Positions 3,496-55,954 of a DNA stretch of 64,000 bases are shown here, piece by piece; position 1 is the stretch's first letter, and every line of letters begins with the position of its first letter. Under the pieces are notes generated by a model. The model saw only the letters and a program-made list of their open reading frames with translations. It had not been told where the DNA came from and made no database searches. The position numbers were made by a program, and so were the translations under genes. The DNA is from a virus. Its lineage: Duplodnaviria > Caudoviricetes. Where the stretch lies: positions 32,001-96,000 of the IMG/VR virus record IMGVR_UViG_3300033068_001957; one strand, written 5' to 3'.

Positions 3496-4552
3496 ATTTC
3501 TTAAGGAATTTAGCTAGTTTATCGGCCTGAAATTTTTCGCGGTGCAAGTTAATTGTTTCTAGAATTTCAGATTTCGGCAGTATAGCACCATTCTTACTCC
3601 AGTCAACTATATTTTTGTTTTCTTTTTGCATATCGCCCAAGTCATTTAGCGTAGGAAGTTTAATTCTCAGCATTTCTACGGGGAAAACCGAAGATAATTT
3701 AATCATGTTTTTAATGGCGGCGATTTTGCCAGTATTTTGTTCCTTTGATGAATCATTATTAGTGGAAATAGTAATCATCGACGGATCAATGCTTAACAGA
3801 AATGCCAGCAGTTTCGCCGAACAGTCTAGGCCAAAGTTTACCAAGTGATTAAATATCTTGTTTTCACATAAGGCCATGCTATCGCCAATACTCTCCACTA
3901 GAATAACTTCTGGAGCATCGACAAAATACTCCTTACACTGGCTGATTGTATAGTAAGGAAAAACAAACGTATCCTTGCGGCCAATGTGTTTCCATTTTGG
4001 GGTGTTGGGTTTGTCTTCATGGTAAATGTGCCGTCCTGAGAAGCCAATGATTTGTTCGTGTTCGTCAAAGATCGGAAACGTCATACGCTGAAACATCTGA
4101 TCTTTGGTTGCGTAGCCCATCTTATACATCTTCTGAGTAGTGGCGGAAATCCCGCGTTTCTCGTAGAATGAGTAATTTGGCAGCAATCTTTCCAAACAGG
4201 CTTTGTCGTAAGTTTTGGGCATGAGGTATTTGGCTTTTGGGGTGGCGATATATTCTCGCCGTTCTGCGTTGATTAGGGATAGTATGTTTTGCCGATTCTG
4301 AGTCCCGAGAGTTTTTGCCACTAAATCATAAAGAGAAAATCCTTTTTTATCTTCGCCGAAATCAACTGTCCAGCCCGAGTTTTTCCATACTTTGAGGGCG
4401 TTAAAAGTATCGCCGCCTCTGTAAATGGCTCTCGTTCTAACGAAATCGCCGCAATCCTGAATGGGGTATCCAAGATTAGATAAGATTTCAACTACCTTAC
4501 CTGACTCATAATGTTGGAATTTTTTCGGCCCATCAGAAGGAGTCGGGTTCAT
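3482..4552 (-). CDS. DNA primase (Toprim)
   Basis: RMTFPIFD..IIGFSGR, PKWKH, ILVESIGDSMAL; adjacent to the helicase. Confidence 0.85.
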   Translation of the reverse strand: MNPTPSDGPKKFQHYESGKVVEILSNLGYPIQDCGDFVRTRAIYRGGDTFNALKVWKNSGWTVDFGEDKKGFSLYDLVAKTLGTQNRQNILSLINAERREYIATPKAKYLMPKTYDKACLERLLPNYSFYEKRGISATTQKMYKMGYATKDQMFQRMTFPIFDEHEQIIGFSGRHIYHEDKPNTPKWKHIGRKDTFVFPYYTISQCKEYFVDAPEVILVESIGDSMALCENKIFNHLVNFGLDCSAKLLAFLLSIDPSMITISTNNDSSKEQNTGKIAAIKNMIKLSSVFPVEMLRIKLPTLNDLGDMQKENKNIVDWSKNGAILPKSEILETINLHREKFQADKLAKFLKKYESL

Positions 4553-6041
4553 GATGTGATGAAGATTTTTCTAGGGCGGGATTGATATTTTTTCGATTAG
4601 CAAGATCGCGCAAGTCTCCCCGTTCCTCGATTTGGAAATTTTTGAATGAGAGGAAAATGCAGTTTTTTTCTAAATTGTCTCCCATTTTAACTGGCTCCAA
4701 TTCCCCAGCTACATCTTCCCCCAAGTGTCGGGCGGCGAAACAAATAAATTTGTGTGTTCCAAATTCTTCGCCGTCTTCTAGGATTTCGTCTAACGTCTTT
4801 TTGCGTAGAAGAAACATATGAGAACAATATTGAATAATACGGTCTGACAAACTTACAACGCTTTCATCGTCAACGATGTGCTCTTTCTTTTTATTTGTTA
4901 CAATGCCAGCGCGATTACTCTGAACGCTGGTGAATAGGCTTACCATCGGCTTTCCATCGAAAAGAATTTCTTTAGCGATTAGCTTCTTAAATTTATTGAC
5001 GATTTCTCCAATTACCTGCCATTCCGTTGACTGTCCATTAGGAAGTCCTGGGGGTTTAAGATAGTCAAATGAGATAATCATTTCCTTACCCCTGCCGACC
5101 TTGCTATAATAGAATCTTTTTGTATAAGAAACCATTTCATCGGCGCTCATTCCTCCGACACAATAATAGAAGAATTTAAGCTTTTTAATTCTGGGCCAAA
5201 CAGAGCGAACCTTAGCTACAGTTTCGGGTCCAGCATTTCGCCATTTCCCCGTTTCCAAAAGAAAGAGAGGAACGCCAGAAAGTGCGGCGGCTTGGCGGAA
5301 AATCAACTCTTCCTCGCTCATTTCCCCGTTATCAAGATGAAGAACGGTAATATCATATTTATCTGCTACATAAGTAGTGTATTTCATTGCTAGAGAGCTT
5401 TTCCCGCCCTTAGCTCTAGCACACACCACTGTTGCGTTTCCTGGCCTTACCAACGAACCATAGATTTTATTGACGGTAGGGAACGGCCCAAGCATTCCAA
5501 AATCAGTAATTGGATTATTCCCGCGTTCTTCGATTACTTCTTCCATCCTTTCGTAGATGTTGGAAGCGATAGCATCTCCACTATCGAATAGGTTCATTTG
5601 GCTGTTTACCTCTTTATCCACCATCTCTTCAAGATCGGAAAGAGAGGCGGAACGATCTGCGGCCTTAAGCTTCTGTCCCGCACGTTCCATTGCTTCCAGC
5701 AATTTGCGCCGCAAACTAAGCTTCTTTAGCTCAATGGCGGTTTTATACACGGCGTCCTCTGGAACCTTCCTAAGAGCCAAGGATTCAACGAATTCGCCCA
5801 CTGGTACTTCTTCGTCAAACTTAACTCCAATAGATTCAAGACGTTGGGCAAGAATGGTGGCGTTAATGTTTTCGCCCTTCTCTACTGCTTGCTTTAGAAG
5901 GCTAAAAATTGATCGCCGCAAAAGACTGTCTTCCGCGTAAATATCAGCCTCCGAAAAGAACGATTGAATCTTTAAATACTCATCTGGCTTGCGTAGAAGT
6001 CCAGAGAGAAGATGGTATTCTAGTTTTTGGTCGAAAATCAT
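4533..6041 (-). CDS. dnaB: replicative DnaB-like helicase
   Basis: DnaB N-terminal domain, Walker A ARAKGGKS, GEMS, FDYLK, QSNR. Confidence 0.9.
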   Translation of the reverse strand: MIFDQKLEYHLLSGLLRKPDEYLKIQSFFSEADIYAEDSLLRRSIFSLLKQAVEKGENINATILAQRLESIGVKFDEEVPVGEFVESLALRKVPEDAVYKTAIELKKLSLRRKLLEAMERAGQKLKAADRSASLSDLEEMVDKEVNSQMNLFDSGDAIASNIYERMEEVIEERGNNPITDFGMLGPFPTVNKIYGSLVRPGNATVVCARAKGGKSSLAMKYTTYVADKYDITVLHLDNGEMSEEELIFRQAAALSGVPLFLLETGKWRNAGPETVAKVRSVWPRIKKLKFFYYCVGGMSADEMVSYTKRFYYSKVGRGKEMIISFDYLKPPGLPNGQSTEWQVIGEIVNKFKKLIAKEILFDGKPMVSLFTSVQSNRAGIVTNKKKEHIVDDESVVSLSDRIIQYCSHMFLLRKKTLDEILEDGEEFGTHKFICFAARHLGEDVAGELEPVKMGDNLEKNCIFLSFKNFQIEERGDLRDLANRKNINPALEKSSSHHEPDSF

Positions 6042-6044
6042 AGT

Positions 6045-6284
6045 TTATTCGCTTAAATCAAATCCTTCGCCGCCAATACTTTCTTGTTCGTCCATTGCCC
6101 GCAGAAATGTTTCCGCCCTTTTCCGTAACGCCGAAAGCGTTACATCGTTTTGTCGGGTGACAACTTGCCGCACATTTGCATCTGCGTCAATGTAAAAAAG
6201 CATAAACCCTTTGTTGTTTTTGCCGTCACCAGTGAGTTCATATAGCTTCTCAAGAAAAGATTTGGGAATTGTAAATTTTGGCAT
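6045..6284 (-). CDS. hypothetical protein
   Basis: Preceded by the CGTTAATAT promoter-like motif. Confidence 0.7.
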   Translation of the reverse strand: MPKFTIPKSFLEKLYELTGDGKNNKGFMLFYIDADANVRQVVTRQNDVTLSALRKRAETFLRAMDEQESIGGEGFDLSE

Positions 6285-9663: not shown

Positions 9664-9731
9664 AGTTTGAATATATTAACCAATAAAGAAGATTAATTTT
9701 TGAATTGTGTGTAATTCTTACTACAATCCAA

Positions 9732-24546: not shown

Positions 24547-24649
24547 AGTCTAAAAGTTACACGACAAGAACGCTTTGGGCAAGTTGTTTTTTGCAGTGTT
24601 TTGGATTATTTTTGGCGCGAAAACTAGATTCTCAAATTTGCGAGTTTCA

Positions 24650-30968: not shown

Positions 30969-32066
30969 ATGGAAAAACTAATTTTAAACGCGCCGATTTC
31001 TAGTCTTTCGCTAGGCCAAGTCTCTTATAACATTATCAGAGAATGTTGGAAACGAAACATAGACCTTGCCTATTTTCCCATTGGAGAAGTTCAATTAGAT
31101 GCTTTTCAGCCGCCAAAAGAATTAGTTGCATATATTCAAGACGCCCTGAATAAAAGACTTTCTCATCTTGGCCGCGATGTTAAGACTCTAAAAATTTGGC
31201 ATATTCAATCACAGGAACCGAAAGACCCATTCCGAGTTCTTCTTACGCCCGATCAAACTTTATGCACGTTTCATGAGACAGATTTTTCGACCGAATTTGA
31301 AAAAACTTTGGTAAATTTAAACAGAAAGACCTTATTCTGCGGCAATTACTCAGAAAATATCTTTCTCGCTGCTGGATGCCCTAACGTAGGATCGTTTAAT
31401 GTAGGATGGGATGAAGATTTCAAGGTCGCAGGTAAAAAATATCTAGAAGGGCGAAAACATTTCTTATTGGTGGGAAAGCGTGAAGTCAGAAAAAACACTA
31501 GCCAAATTATCAAAACGTGGATAAAAAAATATGGCAATAACAAAGACTACGCTTTAACTTGCGTAATCAACAATCCATTCTTTAGTCCAGAAGACAACCA
31601 GAGACTCATTCAGGAAGACTTGGGAGGAAAACGCATTTGGAATCTGAATCTCCTACCTCACCTGAAAACTAACGACGAAATGAATGAGGTTTATAATTCT
31701 TGCGACATCGACTTGAGCGGCGCAAGTTTTTCTGAATCATATGGGATTCCAGCTTTTACATCATGCGGGCTAGGCAAAATATGTGTAGTAAATAATTTCG
31801 GCGGTCATAAAGCTTGGGCTACGGCAGAAAACAGTATTCTTATTGAACCAGATGGGATGCAAGATTGTTATGATGGCGTGTTCTTCAATAAGGGCGGGAA
31901 TTTTAGTCAGGGTCAATATTCCCATTATAGCGAAGATGCTCTTGTAGATGCGATGGAACGCGCCGAACAAAAAGTCGGCCAACCAAATACCGCAGGTTTG
32001 GCGCTTCAAAATACACATAGCTGGAAAAATTCTCTTGACCATATCTTGTCTCAAGTGTATAATTAA
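30969..32066 (+). CDS. GT4-like glycosyltransferase
   Basis: FLLVGKREVRKN, YNSCDI..SESYGIP. Confidence 0.8.
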   Translation: MEKLILNAPISSLSLGQVSYNIIRECWKRNIDLAYFPIGEVQLDAFQPPKELVAYIQDALNKRLSHLGRDVKTLKIWHIQSQEPKDPFRVLLTPDQTLCTFHETDFSTEFEKTLVNLNRKTLFCGNYSENIFLAAGCPNVGSFNVGWDEDFKVAGKKYLEGRKHFLLVGKREVRKNTSQIIKTWIKKYGNNKDYALTCVINNPFFSPEDNQRLIQEDLGGKRIWNLNLLPHLKTNDEMNEVYNSCDIDLSGASFSESYGIPAFTSCGLGKICVVNNFGGHKAWATAENSILIEPDGMQDCYDGVFFNKGGNFSQGQYSHYSEDALVDAMERAEQKVGQPNTAGLALQNTHSWKNSLDHILSQVYN

Positions 32067-39528: not shown

Positions 39529-40683
39529 ATGAATTTAGCCCATGCTTATAGCAACTACCTCGGAGTCGTACCGACTGAACGGCCAATATTAAACGAACAA
39601 TTTTTTCCCCTCAAAGACGAAAAGTTCATTACGATTCACAATGATAGGAAATTAGAATCAAAATTCTTCGAGTATTTTCCAGAAGTTATTTCGCTACTAA
39701 AACCCATTCTTTCTCAACTTGGATATAAGATTTATCAAATCGGCGGGCCAAATGATCCAATTTTAGATGGGACGGATTCTCAGTTTTTGGGTCTATCATG
39801 GCCACAAAGCGTTTATATCCTTAAGCGCAGCAGTCTTCACATAGGTATTGATAGTGCTCCTGTACACATTTCGAGCGCATATGATGTGCCAACGATTATT
39901 TTATATAGTCACATATATAGCCAACAAGCTCGCCCGATTTGGGCCGACCCGAAAAAGACAATCATTCTAGAACCAGACTGGGGCGATAAAAAACCCTCCT
40001 ATTCCCCCGTCGAAAACCCAAAAATGATTCGCACAATCAAAGTCGAATCAATCGTCCAATCGGCATTCAAGCTTCTCGATATTGATGTAAAGCTGGACAT
40101 GAAAACCCTCCGTGTCGGTAATGATTACCACGAAGCGGTTATGGAAATTATACCAGACTTTTTCGCCGAAAATCCCGCGTTAAAGAATGGGCTTTTACAT
40201 TTTAGAATGGATTTAACCCACAATGAGCCATGTCTCTTTCATTGGTTGAAAAGCGGTTATCGGGCGAATATTATTACCAGCAAACCAATTGATGTTGCCG
40301 CGCTAAAACAATTCAAGTCGCAAATTCATCGCATTACTTTAATCGCCGAAAATACAGACTCTTACACGCTCGATTACGTAAAAAACGTAAAAAGTCTTGG
40401 CCTAGATGTTTTGATGATGGGGCCGAATAAAGAAACCCTTCCTTGGGTGCGCGAGAAGTTTTTCGATTATTCTGTTGAAAGTTTGGACTATCCAGAACGT
40501 TCTCTTGTTGACAAGATTCCGCCGTATGCTAAATTCTTCTCCAAGAAACAAGTCCATAGCAACGGCAAAATCTTTCCTAGCATCGCCCATTATAAGCAAA
40601 ATTTGTGTTTTGCAAAATCGAATAGGATTATAGATTCGCAAGAATTCTGGTTAGATATAGAATATTTTTATTTTTACCTATAA
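39529..40683 (+). CDS. GT9-like glycosyltransferase; last 29 codons apparently supplied by the tnpB cassette
   Basis: IYQIGG, LHIGIDSAPVHISSAYDVPTIILY. Confidence 0.8.
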   Translation: MNLAHAYSNYLGVVPTERPILNEQFFPLKDEKFITIHNDRKLESKFFEYFPEVISLLKPILSQLGYKIYQIGGPNDPILDGTDSQFLGLSWPQSVYILKRSSLHIGIDSAPVHISSAYDVPTIILYSHIYSQQARPIWADPKKTIILEPDWGDKKPSYSPVENPKMIRTIKVESIVQSAFKLLDIDVKLDMKTLRVGNDYHEAVMEIIPDFFAENPALKNGLLHFRMDLTHNEPCLFHWLKSGYRANIITSKPIDVAALKQFKSQIHRITLIAENTDSYTLDYVKNVKSLGLDVLMMGPNKETLPWVREKFFDYSVESLDYPERSLVDKIPPYAKFFSKKQVHSNGKIFPSIAHYKQNLCFAKSNRIIDSQEFWLDIEYFYFYL

Positions 40684-40725
40684 AGGGAGAATTTTAGTAA
40701 AAATAAGTAATTTTTCTAAAATCAA

Positions 40726-40731
40726 GTGTAA
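40726..40731 (+). promoter_or_regulatory. phage-specific GTGTAA promoter motif (representative copy, in front of tnpB)
   Basis: Same motif 8-30 nt before starts at 9709, 20904, 24557, 35712, 36274, 52550, 53722, and also at 57451. Confidence 0.65.
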
Positions 40732-40741
40732 TATACTATGA

Positions 40742-41908
40742 GTGACACATCGCGCATATAAATTCCGAATCTATCCGACTTCAGAACAGGAAGTTCTTTT
40801 ACGAAGGACTATTGGTAGCTGCCGCTATATTTATAATTGGGCGCTGAATATGAAAAGGGAGGAATGGGTTCAAAATAAAAAAAATCTATCTTATGCTAAA
40901 GTATGCAAATCCTTGACGGAAACGAAAAAGGTGCTGGATTATAATTGGCTTAATAATGTATCAAGTGTTTGCTTGCAGCAGTCATTGAGAAACTTAGATG
41001 TTGCATTTGTTAATTTCTTTAAAAAACGCGCTTCTTATCCAAGTTTTAAATGTCGTAAAAATGGCGGTTCTGCGCGCTTCCTTCAAAATGCATTTCGGAT
41101 TAATGGAGATAATTTATTTCTTGCAAAGATTGAATCTCCGATTAAAGTCTCTTGGACGCGAAAGTTAAATGGGAAATCTAACCAATGTGTTGTCTCTCAA
41201 AACGCTGCTGGCCAATGGTTCGCCTCATTTCTTTATGAAGAAGAGATTGAAAAATTAGCGCCGCTAGATAAAGATGTCGGTATTGACTTGGGGATCGAAA
41301 CGTTCGCGTCAACCTCAGACGGGCAAAAGTATGGACAGCCTAAGCGCATTCGTCGATTGAGAAAGAAGTTGGCGCGTTTGCAACGCCAGCATTCTCGCAA
41401 GATTAAGGGTTCAAAGAACCGTGAAAAGGCTCGCCTCAAGGTTGCCCGTTTGCACCAGCACATTTCAGATGTGCGCAAAGATTTTCTTCATAAGCTTTCC
41501 ACAAAACTCATTCGTGAAAACCAAACGATTGCGTTGGAGGATTTGGCCGTTAAAAACATGGTTAAGAATCGTAAACTTTCTCGCTGTATCAGCGAACAAG
41601 GCTGGCGAATATTCCGAAATATGTTAAAGTATAAGGCTGAGTGGTATGGGCGAGAATTGGTCATCATTGACCGATTCTACCCGAGCAGCAAGACGTGCTC
41701 TTGCTGCGGAAGAAAAACAAATCTTTCGCTTGACAAACGAAAGTGGACATGCGAATGTGGTGTTACGCATGACCGAGACATTAACGCCGCCAAGAATATT
41801 CTCGCCGCTGGACAAGCGGTGCCATTTGCCTGTGGAGCAGACACAAGACCATCGAAGAACTACGTTCTTCGGGGCAGTCCGCGACGAAGCAGGAAACCTA
41901 AAGCGTGA
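40742..41908 (+). CDS. tnpB: TnpB RNA-guided endonuclease, RuvC triad intact
   Basis: AYKFRIYPT, GIDLG (D), ALEDL (E), PSSKTCSCCG..CECG..HDRDINAAKNI (D). Confidence 0.95.
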   Translation: MTHRAYKFRIYPTSEQEVLLRRTIGSCRYIYNWALNMKREEWVQNKKNLSYAKVCKSLTETKKVLDYNWLNNVSSVCLQQSLRNLDVAFVNFFKKRASYPSFKCRKNGGSARFLQNAFRINGDNLFLAKIESPIKVSWTRKLNGKSNQCVVSQNAAGQWFASFLYEEEIEKLAPLDKDVGIDLGIETFASTSDGQKYGQPKRIRRLRKKLARLQRQHSRKIKGSKNREKARLKVARLHQHISDVRKDFLHKLSTKLIRENQTIALEDLAVKNMVKNRKLSRCISEQGWRIFRNMLKYKAEWYGRELVIIDRFYPSSKTCSCCGRKTNLSLDKRKWTCECGVTHDRDINAAKNILAAGQAVPFACGADTRPSKNYVLRGSPRRSRKPKA

Positions 41909-41968
41909 GCTAAAGAATCTTTGTCATTCGTGGCAAAGAGAATGTCAAAAGCAAAACATTCCATTCTC
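41790..41968 (+). ncRNA. predicted omegaRNA (reRNA) scaffold overlapping the tnpB 3' end, plus ~20-nt guide AAGCAAAACATTCCATTCTC (41949-41968); 5' boundary approximate
   Basis: Right-end hairpin CTTTGTCA-TTCG-TGGCAAAG followed by AGAATGTCAA, the typical IS605 right-end layout. Confidence 0.7.
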
Positions 41969-42038
41969 GAAAGCCAATAGAATAATTGATAGTGATGATT
42001 TTTGGCTTGATATTGAGTATTATTACTTCTATCTTTAA
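41949..42038 (+). pseudogene. displaced original 3' end (29 codons + TAA) of the GT9-like gene
   Basis: KQNIPFSKANRIIDSDDFWLDIEYYYFYL* vs KQNLCFAKSNRIIDSQEFWLDIEYFYFYL* at 40594-40683. Confidence 0.85.
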
Positions 42039-51589: not shown

Positions 51590-52521
51590 TGGGAAAATCT
51601 ATATCTTTCTGTGCCGCAGTATCCGCCAAATCGAATATGTCCCAAATAGGCGGGATTAGTTATATCATCGACAAACCGTTTCTTGCATCCTGTAATTGTT
51701 TTGGAGCACTCGTCTTTTTCCCAATAGGCCGCGCCGTCCAATTTGTTTGGGCTGTTTAGGGCGGTAGCAATGTGGGCAACCTTGCAGACGAAGACGGTTC
51801 TAGGCGGGTCAACTCTGTTTTCCACATACACAATATTACCAGCAGAATAAGTTGTTCCTTCAGTCCATAGATTTTGGGCGGAAGATATGCTGTAATTCTC
51901 GTCTGGAGTCACGGTAAAAGCGGTATCGTCTTTTTTCACTATTGGTTTGCCGCAGTAATTGCAGCCCTTGCCGCGATACTGAAATGGGCAATAACGACTC
52001 AATACAATGCGTCCTGGCGTCGTCTGATTCGCCAAATCAAATGGAGCAGAAAGAGATAGCGACACATAGATTTTATTTTCGGCCAGCTTTTGATAAACGA
52101 TAAATGTTTCGCGGGAAATTTCTGCGTTTGGGTCGGGAACTCCATATGGATTTTCGCCCGAATCAAAGTTTACATCGTCAATATATTTTAGCAGCGTTTG
52201 GATTCTTACCAGTTTGGCGTTTTTGAAATCATTTTTGCGCCGCATTAATTGGCTTATTTGTTGATTCTTGTTGGAGATTTTAATCTCGGGGCGGTTCATT
52301 CGTCCTAGAGAGTTCTTTTCAATGGGGTCAACCTCACAAGGAATTGGTGTATAAGCGACACCGCCGAAAATAATCGGCATATCTAATCCATTCGTTGACG
52401 CGGAAAAACTGAAAAAGTTTTCGGGTTCATCTATGACATTAAAATACAAGCGCCATAACTGTAAAACAGTATTCCCGTTGATAGGGTCGATAGATTGGGC
52501 GATTTTATCAGATAACCTCAT
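51586..52521 (-). CDS. minor tail protein L (lambda gpL-like)
   Basis: YCPFQYRGKGCNY, DECSKTITGCKKRF, FGGY. Confidence 0.88.
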   Translation of the reverse strand: MRLSDKIAQSIDPINGNTVLQLWRLYFNVIDEPENFFSFSASTNGLDMPIIFGGVAYTPIPCEVDPIEKNSLGRMNRPEIKISNKNQQISQLMRRKNDFKNAKLVRIQTLLKYIDDVNFDSGENPYGVPDPNAEISRETFIVYQKLAENKIYVSLSLSAPFDLANQTTPGRIVLSRYCPFQYRGKGCNYCGKPIVKKDDTAFTVTPDENYSISSAQNLWTEGTTYSAGNIVYVENRVDPPRTVFVCKVAHIATALNSPNKLDGAAYWEKDECSKTITGCKKRFVDDITNPAYLGHIRFGGYCGTERYRFSQ

Positions 52522-52561
52522 TTTTTAGTCCTTGGGCCTTTAGTATAGGTTACACATTGCT

Positions 52562-53047
52562 ATGCCAGAAGAATACTATATTAACGGGAGCAATCCTGAA
52601 CTCGAAAAAGATTTGCTGAGTTTATTCGCCAAGTTTTGCTTTAAGAGTGAGCCTTTACCAATTTTCGGCGAAGGAAGGACTGTTTCTCAAAAGTTTTCGG
52701 CCATTTATAGGTATTTTGATGAGAATTTTAGGGGTGGTATTTGTTTTTATGAGGGAAACAAGGCTTTTGTCATGTATCAAGAAGGCCAAAAATGGCTTGA
52801 CAATGAAATCCCCGAATTCTACGGCAAAAAAGTCGCAGTAATGATAATGGGAGCGAGTCTCAATAACGACATGGAAGAAATGATCTGGTGCGTTCGGGCC
52901 GTAAAAGAAAGTCTCAAAAAATTGAAAGACCACTACAAATTCGACGTTGTTGCTTGGAACATCAACAGAGTTCGTAATAAAAAACCCTTCGAGCGTATAA
53001 TGGAAATTCTTGGCGGCAAAAAATTAAGAGATTGCTATTATGTCTAA
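52562..53047 (+). CDS. hypothetical protein
   Basis: Long ORF divergent from the tail module. Confidence 0.6.
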   Translation: MPEEYYINGSNPELEKDLLSLFAKFCFKSEPLPIFGEGRTVSQKFSAIYRYFDENFRGGICFYEGNKAFVMYQEGQKWLDNEIPEFYGKKVAVMIMGASLNNDMEEMIWCVRAVKESLKKLKDHYKFDVVAWNINRVRNKKPFERIMEILGGKKLRDCYYV

Positions 53048-53216
53048 ACCAGAATTGAGAAATTTGCCCATGTCGGCGTATAGTCTTTTGGACAAGCTCG
53101 GGATGCTATATGAGTTATATCCAGAAGCCACGGGTGAATGGGACATCGACTGTCCTGCGCCGAGAATTTCAGCTAAAGAAAAAATCCTAAATATTATAAA
53201 TGGCTTACCAAAATAA
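53040..53216 (+). CDS. 58-aa hypothetical protein (not in ORF track)
   Basis: MSKPELRN..GMLYELYPEATGEW..; overlaps both neighbours. Confidence 0.55.
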   Translation: MSKPELRNLPMSAYSLLDKLGMLYELYPEATGEWDIDCPAPRISAKEKILNIINGLPK

Positions 53217-53712
53217 ACACGATGTCTCAGGAGTTAATTCTAGAGATGGGAATAATGCCGAGGAACTTTTTCGACAACTCGCTGAAAACCAAGGATATAC
53301 CGTTACCGACGCTACAAAAACAGAGCAATTTGCCCACATTGATTTCTGGCTAGAAAAAGATGGGAATAGATGGAGCTTTGACTGCAAAGCAAGAAAGAAG
53401 ATTCGGCGAGAAGATAAGGATTTTTCTGATGAGTTCTGTTGGTTGGAATTCGTGTCAGTTAATAATTCGGCTGGCTGGTTAAGAGGGTTAGCTCGATATA
53501 TCGTTTTCGAAAGGGAGAATGATTTTCTCATTGTTGATAGAAAACTTTTGCTAGAATTGGCCGAAAAGATCGTAGATTTTGATACAATTGTGGATCGTCC
53601 GCATAAAGCATTGCGCAAAATTTATCGCCGCTTCAAGAGAAAAGATCAAATTAGTTACGTAGAGTTCGCAGAAATAGAAAAGCTAGAGCATAAGATTTGG
53701 AAAAAATTCTAG
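53200..53712 (+). CDS. PD-(D/E)XK nuclease-like protein; last ~24 codons duplicated beyond the following endonuclease
   Basis: GNNAEELF, HIDFW, FDCKARK, WLEF, GWLRG. Confidence 0.7.
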   Translation: MAYQNKHDVSGVNSRDGNNAEELFRQLAENQGYTVTDATKTEQFAHIDFWLEKDGNRWSFDCKARKKIRREDKDFSDEFCWLEFVSVNNSAGWLRGLARYIVFERENDFLIVDRKLLLELAEKIVDFDTIVDRPHKALRKIYRRFKRKDQISYVEFAEIEKLEHKIWKKF

Positions 53713-53736
53713 AGCTATTTGGTGTAATTCTCTTAT

Positions 53737-54735
53737 ATGGAAAATATACATCGGTGCATACCAAATGGTTTTTATGTCTATATTTTATTAGATCCAAGGT
53801 ATGAAGGCTTATTTAAATACGGAGAAGATTTAGAATTTTGCTTTCGCCCCTATTACGTAGGCAAGGGTGTAGGCAGAAGATATTTAAGACATTTTCATGA
53901 GTCTGAGTTTAAGAGGACGTACAATCAGCATAAAAATAATATTACGAAAAAGATAATGTTAGAAGGCTATGATCCTATTGATTTTGTTGTTTTCTTTAGG
54001 GATGGAATGGAAGAGAGTAGTGCTTTAGAATTAGAAAAGGAGATTATTTCTAAAATTGGTTGTACGTCATTAAAAAATGGTCCTCTTTCCAATAAAACTT
54101 CTGGGGGAGAAAGCCCAGGCTCATTTTTGAGAGGGCTTACATGGGAGCAAAGATATGGCGAAGATAAGGCGAAAGAGATGAAGATTAAAGCATCTAAGAT
54201 ACAAAAAACAATAAAAAAACCAGATCAAAGCGGCGAAAAAAACGCTTTCTTTGGGAAAAAACATTCAGAAGAAACAAAATTAAAATTAAGAAATTGCTTT
54301 TTGAAGCCTATTGTCAGGATAAGTGAATTTTTGGATATAAAAGAATATTCATCTCCCTGTGTTGCCGCCGAAGAAATGAAAAATTGTTTATCGACTTCAA
54401 TCAGTCACTCAGCGACTCAAACATCCAAAGGGATTCATTGCACGTCAGCTAATTTTGTATGGATATATAAAAAAGCTTTTGAGAATTTTTCTCAAGAAGA
54501 ATTAAAGGAATTTGTGAAAAGATCTTTTTTGCGTAAAAATCACGATAAAAAGAAGATTTGTCAATTAGACAGGAATACGAAAAAAGTAATCAAGGTTTGG
54601 GAGTCTATTTCGGATGCTGCTGAAAATATTTTTGGGAGTAGAAAAAGAACGGGAGATATTTCTGCCGCAATTACGCATGACCGACAATGCATGGGTTTCA
54701 GGTGGGAGAACGCGACAGCGGATGACGTTCCATAA
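53737..54735 (+). CDS. GIY-YIG-like homing endonuclease with NUMOD3 and NUMOD1 modules
   Basis: YVYILLDPR..YYVGKG..R; NAFFGKKHSEETK; WESISDAA..GFRW; GTGTAA promoter at 53722. Confidence 0.85.
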   Translation: MENIHRCIPNGFYVYILLDPRYEGLFKYGEDLEFCFRPYYVGKGVGRRYLRHFHESEFKRTYNQHKNNITKKIMLEGYDPIDFVVFFRDGMEESSALELEKEIISKIGCTSLKNGPLSNKTSGGESPGSFLRGLTWEQRYGEDKAKEMKIKASKIQKTIKKPDQSGEKNAFFGKKHSEETKLKLRNCFLKPIVRISEFLDIKEYSSPCVAAEEMKNCLSTSISHSATQTSKGIHCTSANFVWIYKKAFENFSQEELKEFVKRSFLRKNHDKKKICQLDRNTKKVIKVWESISDAAENIFGSRKRTGDISAAITHDRQCMGFRWENATADDVP

Positions 54736-54742
54736 AAAACAA

Positions 54743-54838
54743 AGAAAAGACTTGCTTTCTATTGTTGAAACGGCTAAAGTGAGGGAAATAGCACAAAAAA
54801 TATGGCCCAAACACAACGCCCCTATCACGTCCTCCTAG
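54743..54838 (+). pseudogene. displaced paralogous 3' end of the 53200-53712 gene
   Basis: RKDLLSIVETAKVREIAQKIWPK vs RKDQISYVEFAEIEKLEHKIWKK (11/23 identical, ungapped). Confidence 0.65.
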
Positions 54839-54994
54839 AAAAGGCTGGACATATCCTAAAGAGAGAAAGCGACGGAGATGTTGACATCTTTGTTCTCGAT
54901 AATGGTTATCACAATGGGCCAGGATGTGAGCTTTGTGGCGAAAGCTGGTGCCATCACTGTGAAGAAGAAATCGAACCCTGCACTGGCAAAAAAG

Positions 54995-55216
54995 ATGAAT
55001 AAATACCGCGTCTATATCTCTCAAGTAAATCAAACCTACGTCGAAGTTTCGGCCAAAAACGAAGAAGACGCGAGAGAAAAAGGCTACCGCAAGTGGAGAA
55101 AAGAATACGCCCATAGCAATGTCATGTCTGTAGAGGAAATTGATGACCCAAAAGGCGAATATGGATGCCAACCCGAATTTCATCAAAGAAAGGCTTGCAT
55201 GCGAAGATTACAGTAG
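54995..55216 (+). CDS. small DpnD/PcfM-like protein
   Basis: KYRVYI..VEVSAKNEEDAREK. Confidence 0.5.
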   Translation: MNKYRVYISQVNQTYVEVSAKNEEDAREKGYRKWRKEYAHSNVMSVEEIDDPKGEYGCQPEFHQRKACMRRLQ

Positions 55217-55393
55217 TAGATTGAACATATGAACATAACAATCCCCAAATCCTTCCTCGAAGAAATCCAGCAATGGATGATGGCTAATGATTACGAATGC
55301 GGCCCGCAAGGGTCTGAAATTTATGACAAAATTTCAAAATACCTTGACGCCGCAGAACAATCCGCTATCATTGATTCCACAACACTCTAAATC

Positions 55394-55954
55394 ATGCACC
55401 CAGACCTAAAAATCGGCCAAATCATTATCGGCCCGCAGCAAAAAGATGCTACGCATATTGCGTTAATGCCTGTTGTCGCGGCAGAAAACATGCCTCCTGG
55501 CGCTCATATTGGGTTATCAAATAAAGGAGAAGCCTGCCAAGGGACCAAACATATTGGTATCGTTGACCCTTTTTTGAAAACAAAAGTTTTGCGCGGCGAT
55601 ACTTTCTGGATGTTTATGTATCCAAATACAGTAGCAAATTTGCGCCACGATTGGGATCATCCCGCGCTCGCCAAAATTGAAAAAATCAGACAAAAAGAAA
55701 ATTCTTCAACTTCTAGAGAATGGTTGGTAAGTTATGCCTTAAGAAATATTTATAGCGATACTTCTTATACTGCTGACGAAGCTTACGAAGCTCTTATTGA
55801 TCAAGTAAAGGGCGGCGATTTAACTTTTTATGGCACTGATTGCCATGGTTTGGGAGATGTCCCAGATTCGACAGAATTGTTTCGTCATTTATCCGTGGTT
55901 TTAGACAGAGAAATTACTGAGAAGAGTTTTGATTATTTTGGATGTTCTTGCTAA
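55394..55954 (+). CDS. conserved phage hypothetical protein
   Basis: DATHIA..GIVDPFL..LRHDWDHP..FGCSC; sigma70-like promoter upstream. Confidence 0.7.
   Translation: MHPDLKIGQIIIGPQQKDATHIALMPVVAAENMPPGAHIGLSNKGEACQGTKHIGIVDPFLKTKVLRGDTFWMFMYPNTVANLRHDWDHPALAKIEKIRQKENSSTSREWLVSYALRNIYSDTSYTADEAYEALIDQVKGGDLTFYGTDCHGLGDVPDSTELFRHLSVVLDREITEKSFDYFGCSC

Follow-up and report, generated by a model that had tools for sequence, protein, structure and literature searches.

Why should a freshwater bacteriophage carry two different versions of the last codons of one gene, one on either side of an endonuclease gene? The question is raised by a 64,000-nucleotide (nt) stretch of DNA, hereafter the window, which covers positions 32,001 to 96,000 of the IMG/VR virus record IMGVR_UViG_3300033068_001957 (Duplodnaviria; Caudoviricetes). 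A first-pass annotation, made from the letters alone, had read the end of a gene starting at 53200, the GIY-YIG-like endonuclease gene behind it and an orphan frame further downstream as a cassette in which a nuclease brings a new tail for the gene it enters and leaves the old tail stranded. The coordinates and sequences given for the gene, the endonuclease and the orphan were correct, and our analysis makes it highly probable that the locus holds a free-standing GIY-YIG homing endonuclease in a cassette of the mobile open reading frame (mobile-ORF) type, placed at the 3' end of a gene for a PD-(D/E)xK-like nuclease, here called the host gene. The features of the locus are as follows.

53200-53712, plus strand: host gene, 170 amino acids (aa), PD-(D/E)xK-fold nuclease-like by a weak Mrr_cat match, an AlphaFold model and fold comparison.
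53403-53712, plus strand: A-type island of ~310 bp (codons 61-170), read as a co-conversion tract; homology to the related locus L056 is lost at 53402.
53638-53712, plus strand: working ("new") tail of class A, RKDQISYVEFAEIEKLEHKIWKKF followed by the stop codon, the 3' end of both the host gene and the A-type island.
53711-53772, plus strand: predicted RNA hairpin around GTGTAA and the endonuclease start codon, from folding energy.
53722-53727, plus strand: GTGTAA motif, 9 nt 5' of the endonuclease ATG, recognised by positional enrichment and kept in L005, L006 and L033.
53737-54735, plus strand: free-standing homing endonuclease gene with GIY-YIG and NUMOD3, 332 aa, an intact ORF, from Pfam, PHROG and homologues at the locus.
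54712-54742, no strand: zone of the right junction, where the 3' end of the endonuclease gene passes into the B-type remnant, placed by the extra C-terminal residues of the endonuclease, the start of the profile match (54719) and the point where homology resumes (54741).
54743-54838, plus strand: orphan ("old") tail of class B, RKDLLSIVETAKVREIAQKIWPKHNAPITSS followed by the stop codon, assigned by profile and by protein and DNA identity to B tails.
54802-55002, plus strand: downstream cysteine-rich gene, 66 aa, its ATG lying within the "IW" codons (ATATGG) of the old tail.

The new and orphan tails agree, as first reported, in 11 of 23 residues without gaps, a modest value for a pairwise comparison alone. 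Chance similarity, an assembly chimera or a self-splicing intron joining the gene body to the old tail could in principle produce such a picture, and we regard all three as scarcely credible. A profile of the last ~45 residues of 15 host-protein homologues matched the window at 54719-54817 (profile positions 12-44) with an E-value of 6.5e-12, so that the profile alignment, which might have denied the homology, favours it. The orphan also shares 21 of 23 residues with the working tail of an endonuclease-free relative (P0010/L056), and its DNA is 83-91% identical to that of L004 (91% over 68 nt) and 86% identical to that of L056 over 71 nt. When all 239 ORFs of at least 90 aa in the 160-kb genome were scored for a further copy of their own tail downstream, the host-gene locus scored 66 and the tnpB cassette of the same genome 129, against at most 50 for the controls; these two are the only tail duplications in the genome. 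The junctions lie on an unbranched 1700-nt contig from the source run, which spans 53352-55051 with zero differences, and independent assemblies from other studies repeat the layout. In a run of another study, a contig links the 3' end of an HNH endonuclease gene to the same remnant, beginning at 54741. A DNA search of a phage collection with 52500-55400 gave no match. No group I or II intron was matched in 52500-55500 at E-values up to 1, so the endonuclease is not an intron-encoded one, no ribozyme core being recognised, and an Rfam scan returned only a sub-threshold match to a microRNA model that reflects the hairpin at the endonuclease start. Moreover, nothing is missing from the upstream tail, which corresponds to working tails in phages that lack the endonuclease.

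On these comparisons of sequence, the orphan frame is a true homologue of the host-gene tail. Its frame does open 8 nt past the endonuclease stop, at 54743; this is not the limit of the homology, which probably begins some 20 nt earlier (~54719-54730) and overlaps the last codons of the endonuclease in another frame. The endonuclease stop codon (54733-54735) falls inside the junction zone, within remnant-derived sequence, and the endonuclease C-terminus is 5 residues longer than in L005 and L006, which together place the right junction at ~54712-54742. The host-gene stop codon (53710-53712) terminates the protein ahead of the remnant. At the DNA level the new and old tails of the window are ~50% identical, in-register comparison of the two tails gave 45-59% within each of five loci, and no direct repeat of DNA was detectable between the tails.

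The gene between the two tails is, by the features of its predicted protein and its placement, a free-standing GIY-YIG homing endonuclease gene, for which cleavage and homing are predicted. The GIY-YIG domain was recognised by PF22945 (34.6 bits against a cut-off of 27 bits, E-value 2.3e-8), a NUMOD3 motif (PF07460, E-value 1.4e-6) lies C-terminal to the nuclease domain at residues 165-185, and the protein matches phrog_314, annotated "homing endonuclease", and weakly the solved GIY-YIG proteins. Homologues with 43-44% identity sit at the same locus in L005 and L006/7 (and L033), and the three GIY-YIG lineages that stand at this distance from one another all have VYI, YVG, R47/48, E100/102 and N119. 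Furthermore, the gene is placed sporadically at one conserved locus among relatives, outside any intron or intein, with 11 loci bearing an endonuclease and 27 free of one. The C-terminal 60 aa resemble the NUMOD1 region of HNH endonucleases found at the same locus (40% identity, E-value 3e-10); we considered this shared module as proof of a common target and dropped the idea, as the module is a generic NUMOD1-like motif.

The host protein has no family annotation, and a profile search of solved structures returned only insignificant matches. Its AlphaFold model has a predicted local distance difference test score (pLDDT) of 91.7 and a fold that matches PD-(D/E)xK nucleases, the best solved match being I-Ssp6803I, followed by Hjc, RecU and SPARDA nuclease domains, all of them weak. 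Residues H46, D48, K63 and E83 are invariant. The tail is modelled as two beta-strands and a short helix (tail pLDDT 96-98) and belongs to the predicted fold, so the host gene would appear to need a tail.

The nucleotide sequence of the host gene is not uniform. Block-wise comparison found codons 1-60 nearest to B-type L056 (78, 69, 93 and 96% identity in successive blocks) and codons 61-170 nearest to A-type L001 (mostly 82-89%), the latter being only ~45-65% identical to L056. With BLAST, positions 52333-53402 aligned to L056 at 85%; the alignment was then lost and resumed at 54741-54811 at 86%, so that 53403-54740 of the window stands in place of 233 bp of the B-type gene. The A-type island, whose nearest neighbours are L001 and L029 while L056 is nearest for the remaining locus, abuts the endonuclease gene exactly, and its flanks are only 73-77% identical to L001. 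Because the island is closer to L001 than its flanks are, it was imported into a B-type backbone together with the adjoining endonuclease gene. Read in this way, the host gene is a chimera of native B-type codons 1-60 and imported A-type codons 61-170, a structure that fits break repair with co-conversion of flanking markers. At the left breakpoint the DNA is more conserved than anywhere else in the gene and codes for QFxHIDFWLEKDG, which belongs to the PD-(D/E)xK motif. The proposal of an imported new tail therefore holds in that the tail was imported and fails in that the tail did not come alone: the import is a ~310-bp tract (codons 61-170) with no fixed left end, as co-conversion predicts.

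Which tail do endonuclease-free relatives carry? We gathered ~60 related loci, denoted by L numbers, from contigs encoding homologues, IMG/VR and JGI metagenomes; the 15 homologues gave two tail classes, A and B, and the relatives overall carry several. Class A reads RKDQISYIEFAEIEKLEHKIW and class B, to which the window orphan belongs, reads RKDLLSIIETAKVREIxxKIWPK. The class B tail is fused to the gene as its working end in the endonuclease-free loci L004, L056, L058 and L059, in line with its being the original tail, as the first-pass annotation had proposed to check. Class A is the working tail, with no endonuclease, in L001-3, L029 and L031/32. The new tail is thus a natural allele, and the notion that it was recoded for the purpose has to be given up. 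The triplets GAY TTG CTN directly follow the conserved Asp codon in all orphan tails and in most endonuclease-free B and C alleles, and every new tail differs from them at that position. The orphan and the working B tail of L056 differ by 6 synonymous and 2 non-synonymous codon changes, and orphan tails compared with working tails are in general rich in synonymous changes, the same pattern as among working tails, which suggests that orphans are young or regularly renewed. The orphan frame of L009 has a stop codon where the overlapping downstream gene shows only a missense change, as would fit an orphan frame free of selection.

The layout is not confined to the window. Eleven related loci carry an endonuclease gene directly 3' of the host gene, either GIY-YIG (window, L005, L006, L007 and L033) or HNH (L009, L011, L012, L030 and L034/35; phrog_374/3377, NUMOD1). 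A second tail was detectable by profile in seven of the 11 (window, L005, L006, L007, L009, L012 and L030); it is short in L011, where only the last ~12 codons remain, and decayed with insertions and deletions in L033. By comparison, a second tail is absent from all 27 endonuclease-free loci for which 400 bp or more of downstream sequence was available. The arrangement of a complete divergent tail, GTGTAA, nuclease and orphan old tail is therefore real, and it recurs in relatives with both nuclease families. The tail classes combine as follows.

Window and L009: working (new) tail A, orphan (old) tail B.
L012: working (new) tail C, orphan (old) tail B.
L030: working (new) tail A, orphan (old) tail C.
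L005-7: working (new) tail D, orphan (old) tail C.

Since these combinations differ between loci, several events are needed. In addition, segment nearest neighbours placed a break near residue 60 in other endonuclease-bearing genes: L009 joins an E-type N-terminus (90% to L010) to an A-type remainder, L008 is 84% identical to L030 at the N-terminus and 100% after it, and L005 matches L014 at 94% in its N-terminus and resembles L006 thereafter. A "WKK" ending and a CAA codon in the remnants of the window and L012 hinted that the GIY-YIG gene of the window had taken the place of an HNH gene inside an older A/B cassette; we rejected this as unsupported, as in most blocks the nucleotides of the island resemble endonuclease-free L001 more than they do the HNH-linked alleles. 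The HNH gene of L008 is reduced to a 27-codon stub by a GC-rich, hairpin-bearing IS200/605-like element (4470-6170) with an ORF for an IS200-like TnpA (5792-6166), so at this hotspot one selfish element has displaced another.

These counts also bear on the view that the locus is a fossil scar, that is, a single illegitimate exchange between A-type and B-type genes at a module boundary, with an endonuclease that merely sits there and is not, or is no longer, the cause. The phages are highly mosaic, the endonuclease activity is only predicted, and the locus is a module junction at which unrelated downstream genes all start in the "IW" codons of the tail. We nevertheless judge this view unlikely, as the duplication tracks the endonuclease (7-9 of 11 bearing loci, 0 of 27 free loci), the association holds for both nuclease families and for more than one tail class, the A-type island runs exactly up to the endonuclease gene, and the endonuclease ORFs are intact and conserved.

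The start site at issue is widely shared. The next gene also begins inside the "IW" codons of an intact tail in the endonuclease-free loci L004, where it encodes a 74-aa homologue, and L058, and the same overlap is present in L006/L007. Unrelated genes after the host gene all use this ATG (L004 at 2362, L010 at 4492, L016 at 4238, L017 at 4459, L021 at 4477; window at 54802), and in L009, L012 and L030 the HNH gene starts at the corresponding ATG of the new tail. The site looks like a conserved module junction, and the downstream genes at this locus differ between phage lineages. A few genes beyond the locus, in the downstream direction, L006 (6253-7257) and L058 (2893-3696) carry Gad2-family genes (PF26128).

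A start site of this kind could suggest that the old tail owes its retention chiefly to a function, either as a signal for initiation or coupling of translation of the 66-aa gene or as an operator through which the endonuclease regulates itself, as I-TevI does (PMC2988022). The downstream ATG lies within the "IW" codons of the old tail at every locus, the remnant of L011 comprises just the final codons, and the L009 stop in the remnant frame is a mere missense change in the overlapping gene. Such a role accounts for the last 30-40 nt only and not for the 5' part (RKDLLSIVETAKV...), it leaves the origin of the duplication unexplained, and it is compatible with homing rather than exclusive of it. 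As the main reason for the old tail, we consider it decidedly improbable.

Homing into the host gene would proceed as follows. In a mixed infection, the endonuclease would cut an endonuclease-free sensitive allele (B-type, or C-type in relatives) near the RKD codons, a position already proposed in the first-pass annotation and one that fits the resumption of B-type homology at 54741. The left end would be resected to the conserved catalytic-motif DNA at about codon 60 and would then invade an endonuclease-bearing genome, from which repair would copy the A-type 3' two-thirds of the gene, GTGTAA and the endonuclease gene, while the right end would retain the recipient's own tail from about RKD onward. 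The outcome is read directly in the sequence: an intact chimeric gene, an endonuclease and an orphan old tail. Because the downstream genes differ between lineages, the first junction must have come from illegitimate or one-sided repair; the recipient break would have been repaired by homology on the left only, with the right side joined illegitimately so as to keep the recipient tail. Once complete, the cassette would find homology to B-type genomes at both its ends and so could spread into more of them. A divergent new tail lacking GAYTTGCT would shield the carrier from its own enzyme, and the low DNA identity between the tails would leave no direct repeat for deleting the endonuclease gene. 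The old tail may persist because it holds the start codon of the next gene, because later homing events can use it as their right homology arm, and because it is young. The cleavage position, the resistance of the A allele and present-day homing activity are what we infer from the sequence. The source run X1 holds a second related strain at ~1/3 depth, which departs from the window sequence within the nuclease-like gene and upstream of it (52600-53230; 55470-55600); partners for mixed infection thus coexist in the source sample.

Several observations sit less easily with homing as the origin of the cassette. In L034/35 an HNH endonuclease stands with no tail remnant behind it, which shows that duplication need not accompany the endonuclease. 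L012 has class C as its new tail and L030 has it as its old one, a reversal that requires sensitivity to vary from one endonuclease lineage to the next. How far the orphans extend on the left depends on the locus, from ~46 aa down to ~12 aa or none; this leaves the position of the break loosely defined and calls for more than one event or for erosion afterwards. We found no relative of the window endonuclease above 44% identity, which makes the donor genome hypothetical, and we infer the target site only from where homology resumes.

The GTGTAA element in front of the nuclease, noticed at the outset as a promoter, proved to be a genuine start-associated motif. Its total count in the window is not enriched (23 against 17.6 +/- 4.3), and the signal appears only positionally: 25 of the 58 copies in the genome lie 4-30 nt before the first ATG of an ORF of at least 60 aa, whereas 90 letter permutations of the same composition gave a mean of 4.5% before ORF starts. 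The next-best hexamers are shifted versions of GTGTAA. Examples are at 53722-53727, 40726-40731, 24557-24562 (minus strand) and 9709-9714 of the window, and the motif is kept ahead of the GIY-YIG genes in L005, L006 and L033. By position GTGTAA is a start-associated motif and a putative promoter. The predicted hairpin at 53711-53772 has a folding energy of -17.2 kcal/mol (z -2.1; matched by 6 of 200 shuffled sequences); the start hairpins of L005 and L006, which have smaller stems, and of L033 are not significant by energy. In T4, the starts of endonuclease genes are masked in early transcripts and freed in late ones, an arrangement that the hairpin of the window recalls.

The second tail duplication of the genome is that of the tnpB cassette.

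40594-42038 (39529-42038 with the upstream gene): tnpB cassette, in which the tail of a 384-aa gene stands on both sides of the nuclease gene.

The 384-aa gene ends in ...NRIIDSQEFWLDIEYFYFYL with its stop at 40683, and the second copy of the tail, ...NRIIDSDDFWLDIEYYYFYL, ends with its stop at 42038, directly before the next gene; 22 of 29 aa are identical between the two. In relatives that are 40-44% identical, the next gene follows directly after the tail and there is no tnpB. The parallel drawn earlier between the two cassettes is sound as to layout: in both, the tail flanks the nuclease on either side and the old tail abuts the next gene, and here GTGTAA lies 10 nt before the ATG. In contrast to the GIY-YIG locus, the nuclease is RNA-guided, the ends are of the IS200/605 type and the tails are far more alike. 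The first-pass annotation went further and proposed that TnpB has adopted a way of life already used by the homing endonucleases of this phage. The plural is an overstatement, as no other endonuclease in the genome has a tail duplication, and the adoption itself is a hypothesis about direction. It stays at that level in view of the absence of a second endonuclease with this layout from the genome and of the tnpB of L001 (2561-3841) and L003, which is an ordinary clean insertion of an insertion sequence. This tnpB is missing from L002 (1592) and shows no tail duplication; it lies between a 160-aa and a 57-aa gene, after TTATTAC, and supplies a new last codon and stop for the upstream gene. Tentatively, a single "cut-and-rescue" cassette grammar, made up of a resistant divergent tail, GTGTAA, a nuclease and a sensitive old tail that serves as right homology arm and as start of the next gene, might be used convergently by three unrelated kinds of nuclease, GIY-YIG, HNH and the RNA-guided TnpB. 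The nuclease module would then be exchangeable, and the tnpB cassette at 40594-42038 would spread by homing and not by TnpA transposition; we think this possible and rather doubtful.

Our reading places in bacteriophages a C-terminus-replacement layout described from fungal mitochondria, a known kind of element in a new type of host. The ~12 loci, with two nuclease families and several tail classes, form a natural series from which the steps of invasion may be read: break, resection to the conserved motif, co-conversion and one-sided joining. The series shows how an endonuclease can colonise the end of a gene that overlaps the start of the next while killing neither, and homing of this kind would account for sharply distinct allele classes of neighbouring genes in mosaic phages. 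Furthermore, it yields a concrete predicted target, GAYTTGCT just after the RKD codons, and a protein-guided comparison by which the tnpB cassette of the same genome can be judged.

Among known systems, intronless homing with co-conversion is established in T4 for SegF, SegG, SegB and MobE (PMC2988022, PMC13565253). There, as here, a free-standing GIY-YIG or HNH gene has as its neighbour a conserved gene whose endonuclease-free allele contains the target, sequence differences separate self from non-self, and flanking markers are co-converted. T4 endonuclease starts also overlap the upstream gene, in the way that the three HNH genes start in the "IW" codons of the tail. In T4, however, the endonuclease genes stand cleanly between two genes common to both phages, whereas here the downstream gene varies by lineage and a piece of the recipient gene remains; the word "duplication" is absent from the review of T4 mobile elements (PMC2988022). 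Our literature searches found no description of the C-terminus-replacement layout in phages. Split and fractured genes, such as nrdA/mobE of Aeh1 and fractured genes with split inteins (PMC2677866), likewise hold an endonuclease within the span of the host gene, whose function is saved by a compensating arrangement. The phage gene differs in that it has not been divided into two functional pieces; with its 3' end replaced in full, it has no need of the downstream fragment.

The closest parallel is that of the fungal mitochondrial mobile ORFs with C-terminus replacement, correctly invoked in the first-pass annotation, which are known from atp6 of Allomyces macrogynus, atp6, atp9, cox2 and nad3 of Glomus, atp9 of Rhizopus and cox2 of Mortierella (PMC3630166). 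Their layout, an in-frame inserted divergent C-terminus followed by a LAGLIDADG or GIY-YIG ORF and a remnant of the native C-terminus, is the same as that of the phage locus (PMC3630166). As in Glomus, the remnant is closer to the genes of relatives than to the inserted copy (83-91% against ~50% nt identity in the phage), and in both settings the inserted part appears to derive from another lineage. Several features set the phage locus apart, beginning with a host that is a phage and not an organelle. Its endonuclease ORF stands by itself, with a motif of its own upstream, whereas in atp6 and nad3 the endonuclease is an in-frame fusion; the remnant shares sequence with the start of the gene that follows; the site is occupied now by one nuclease family, now by the other; and the tract that was co-converted visibly exceeds the duplicated part in length.

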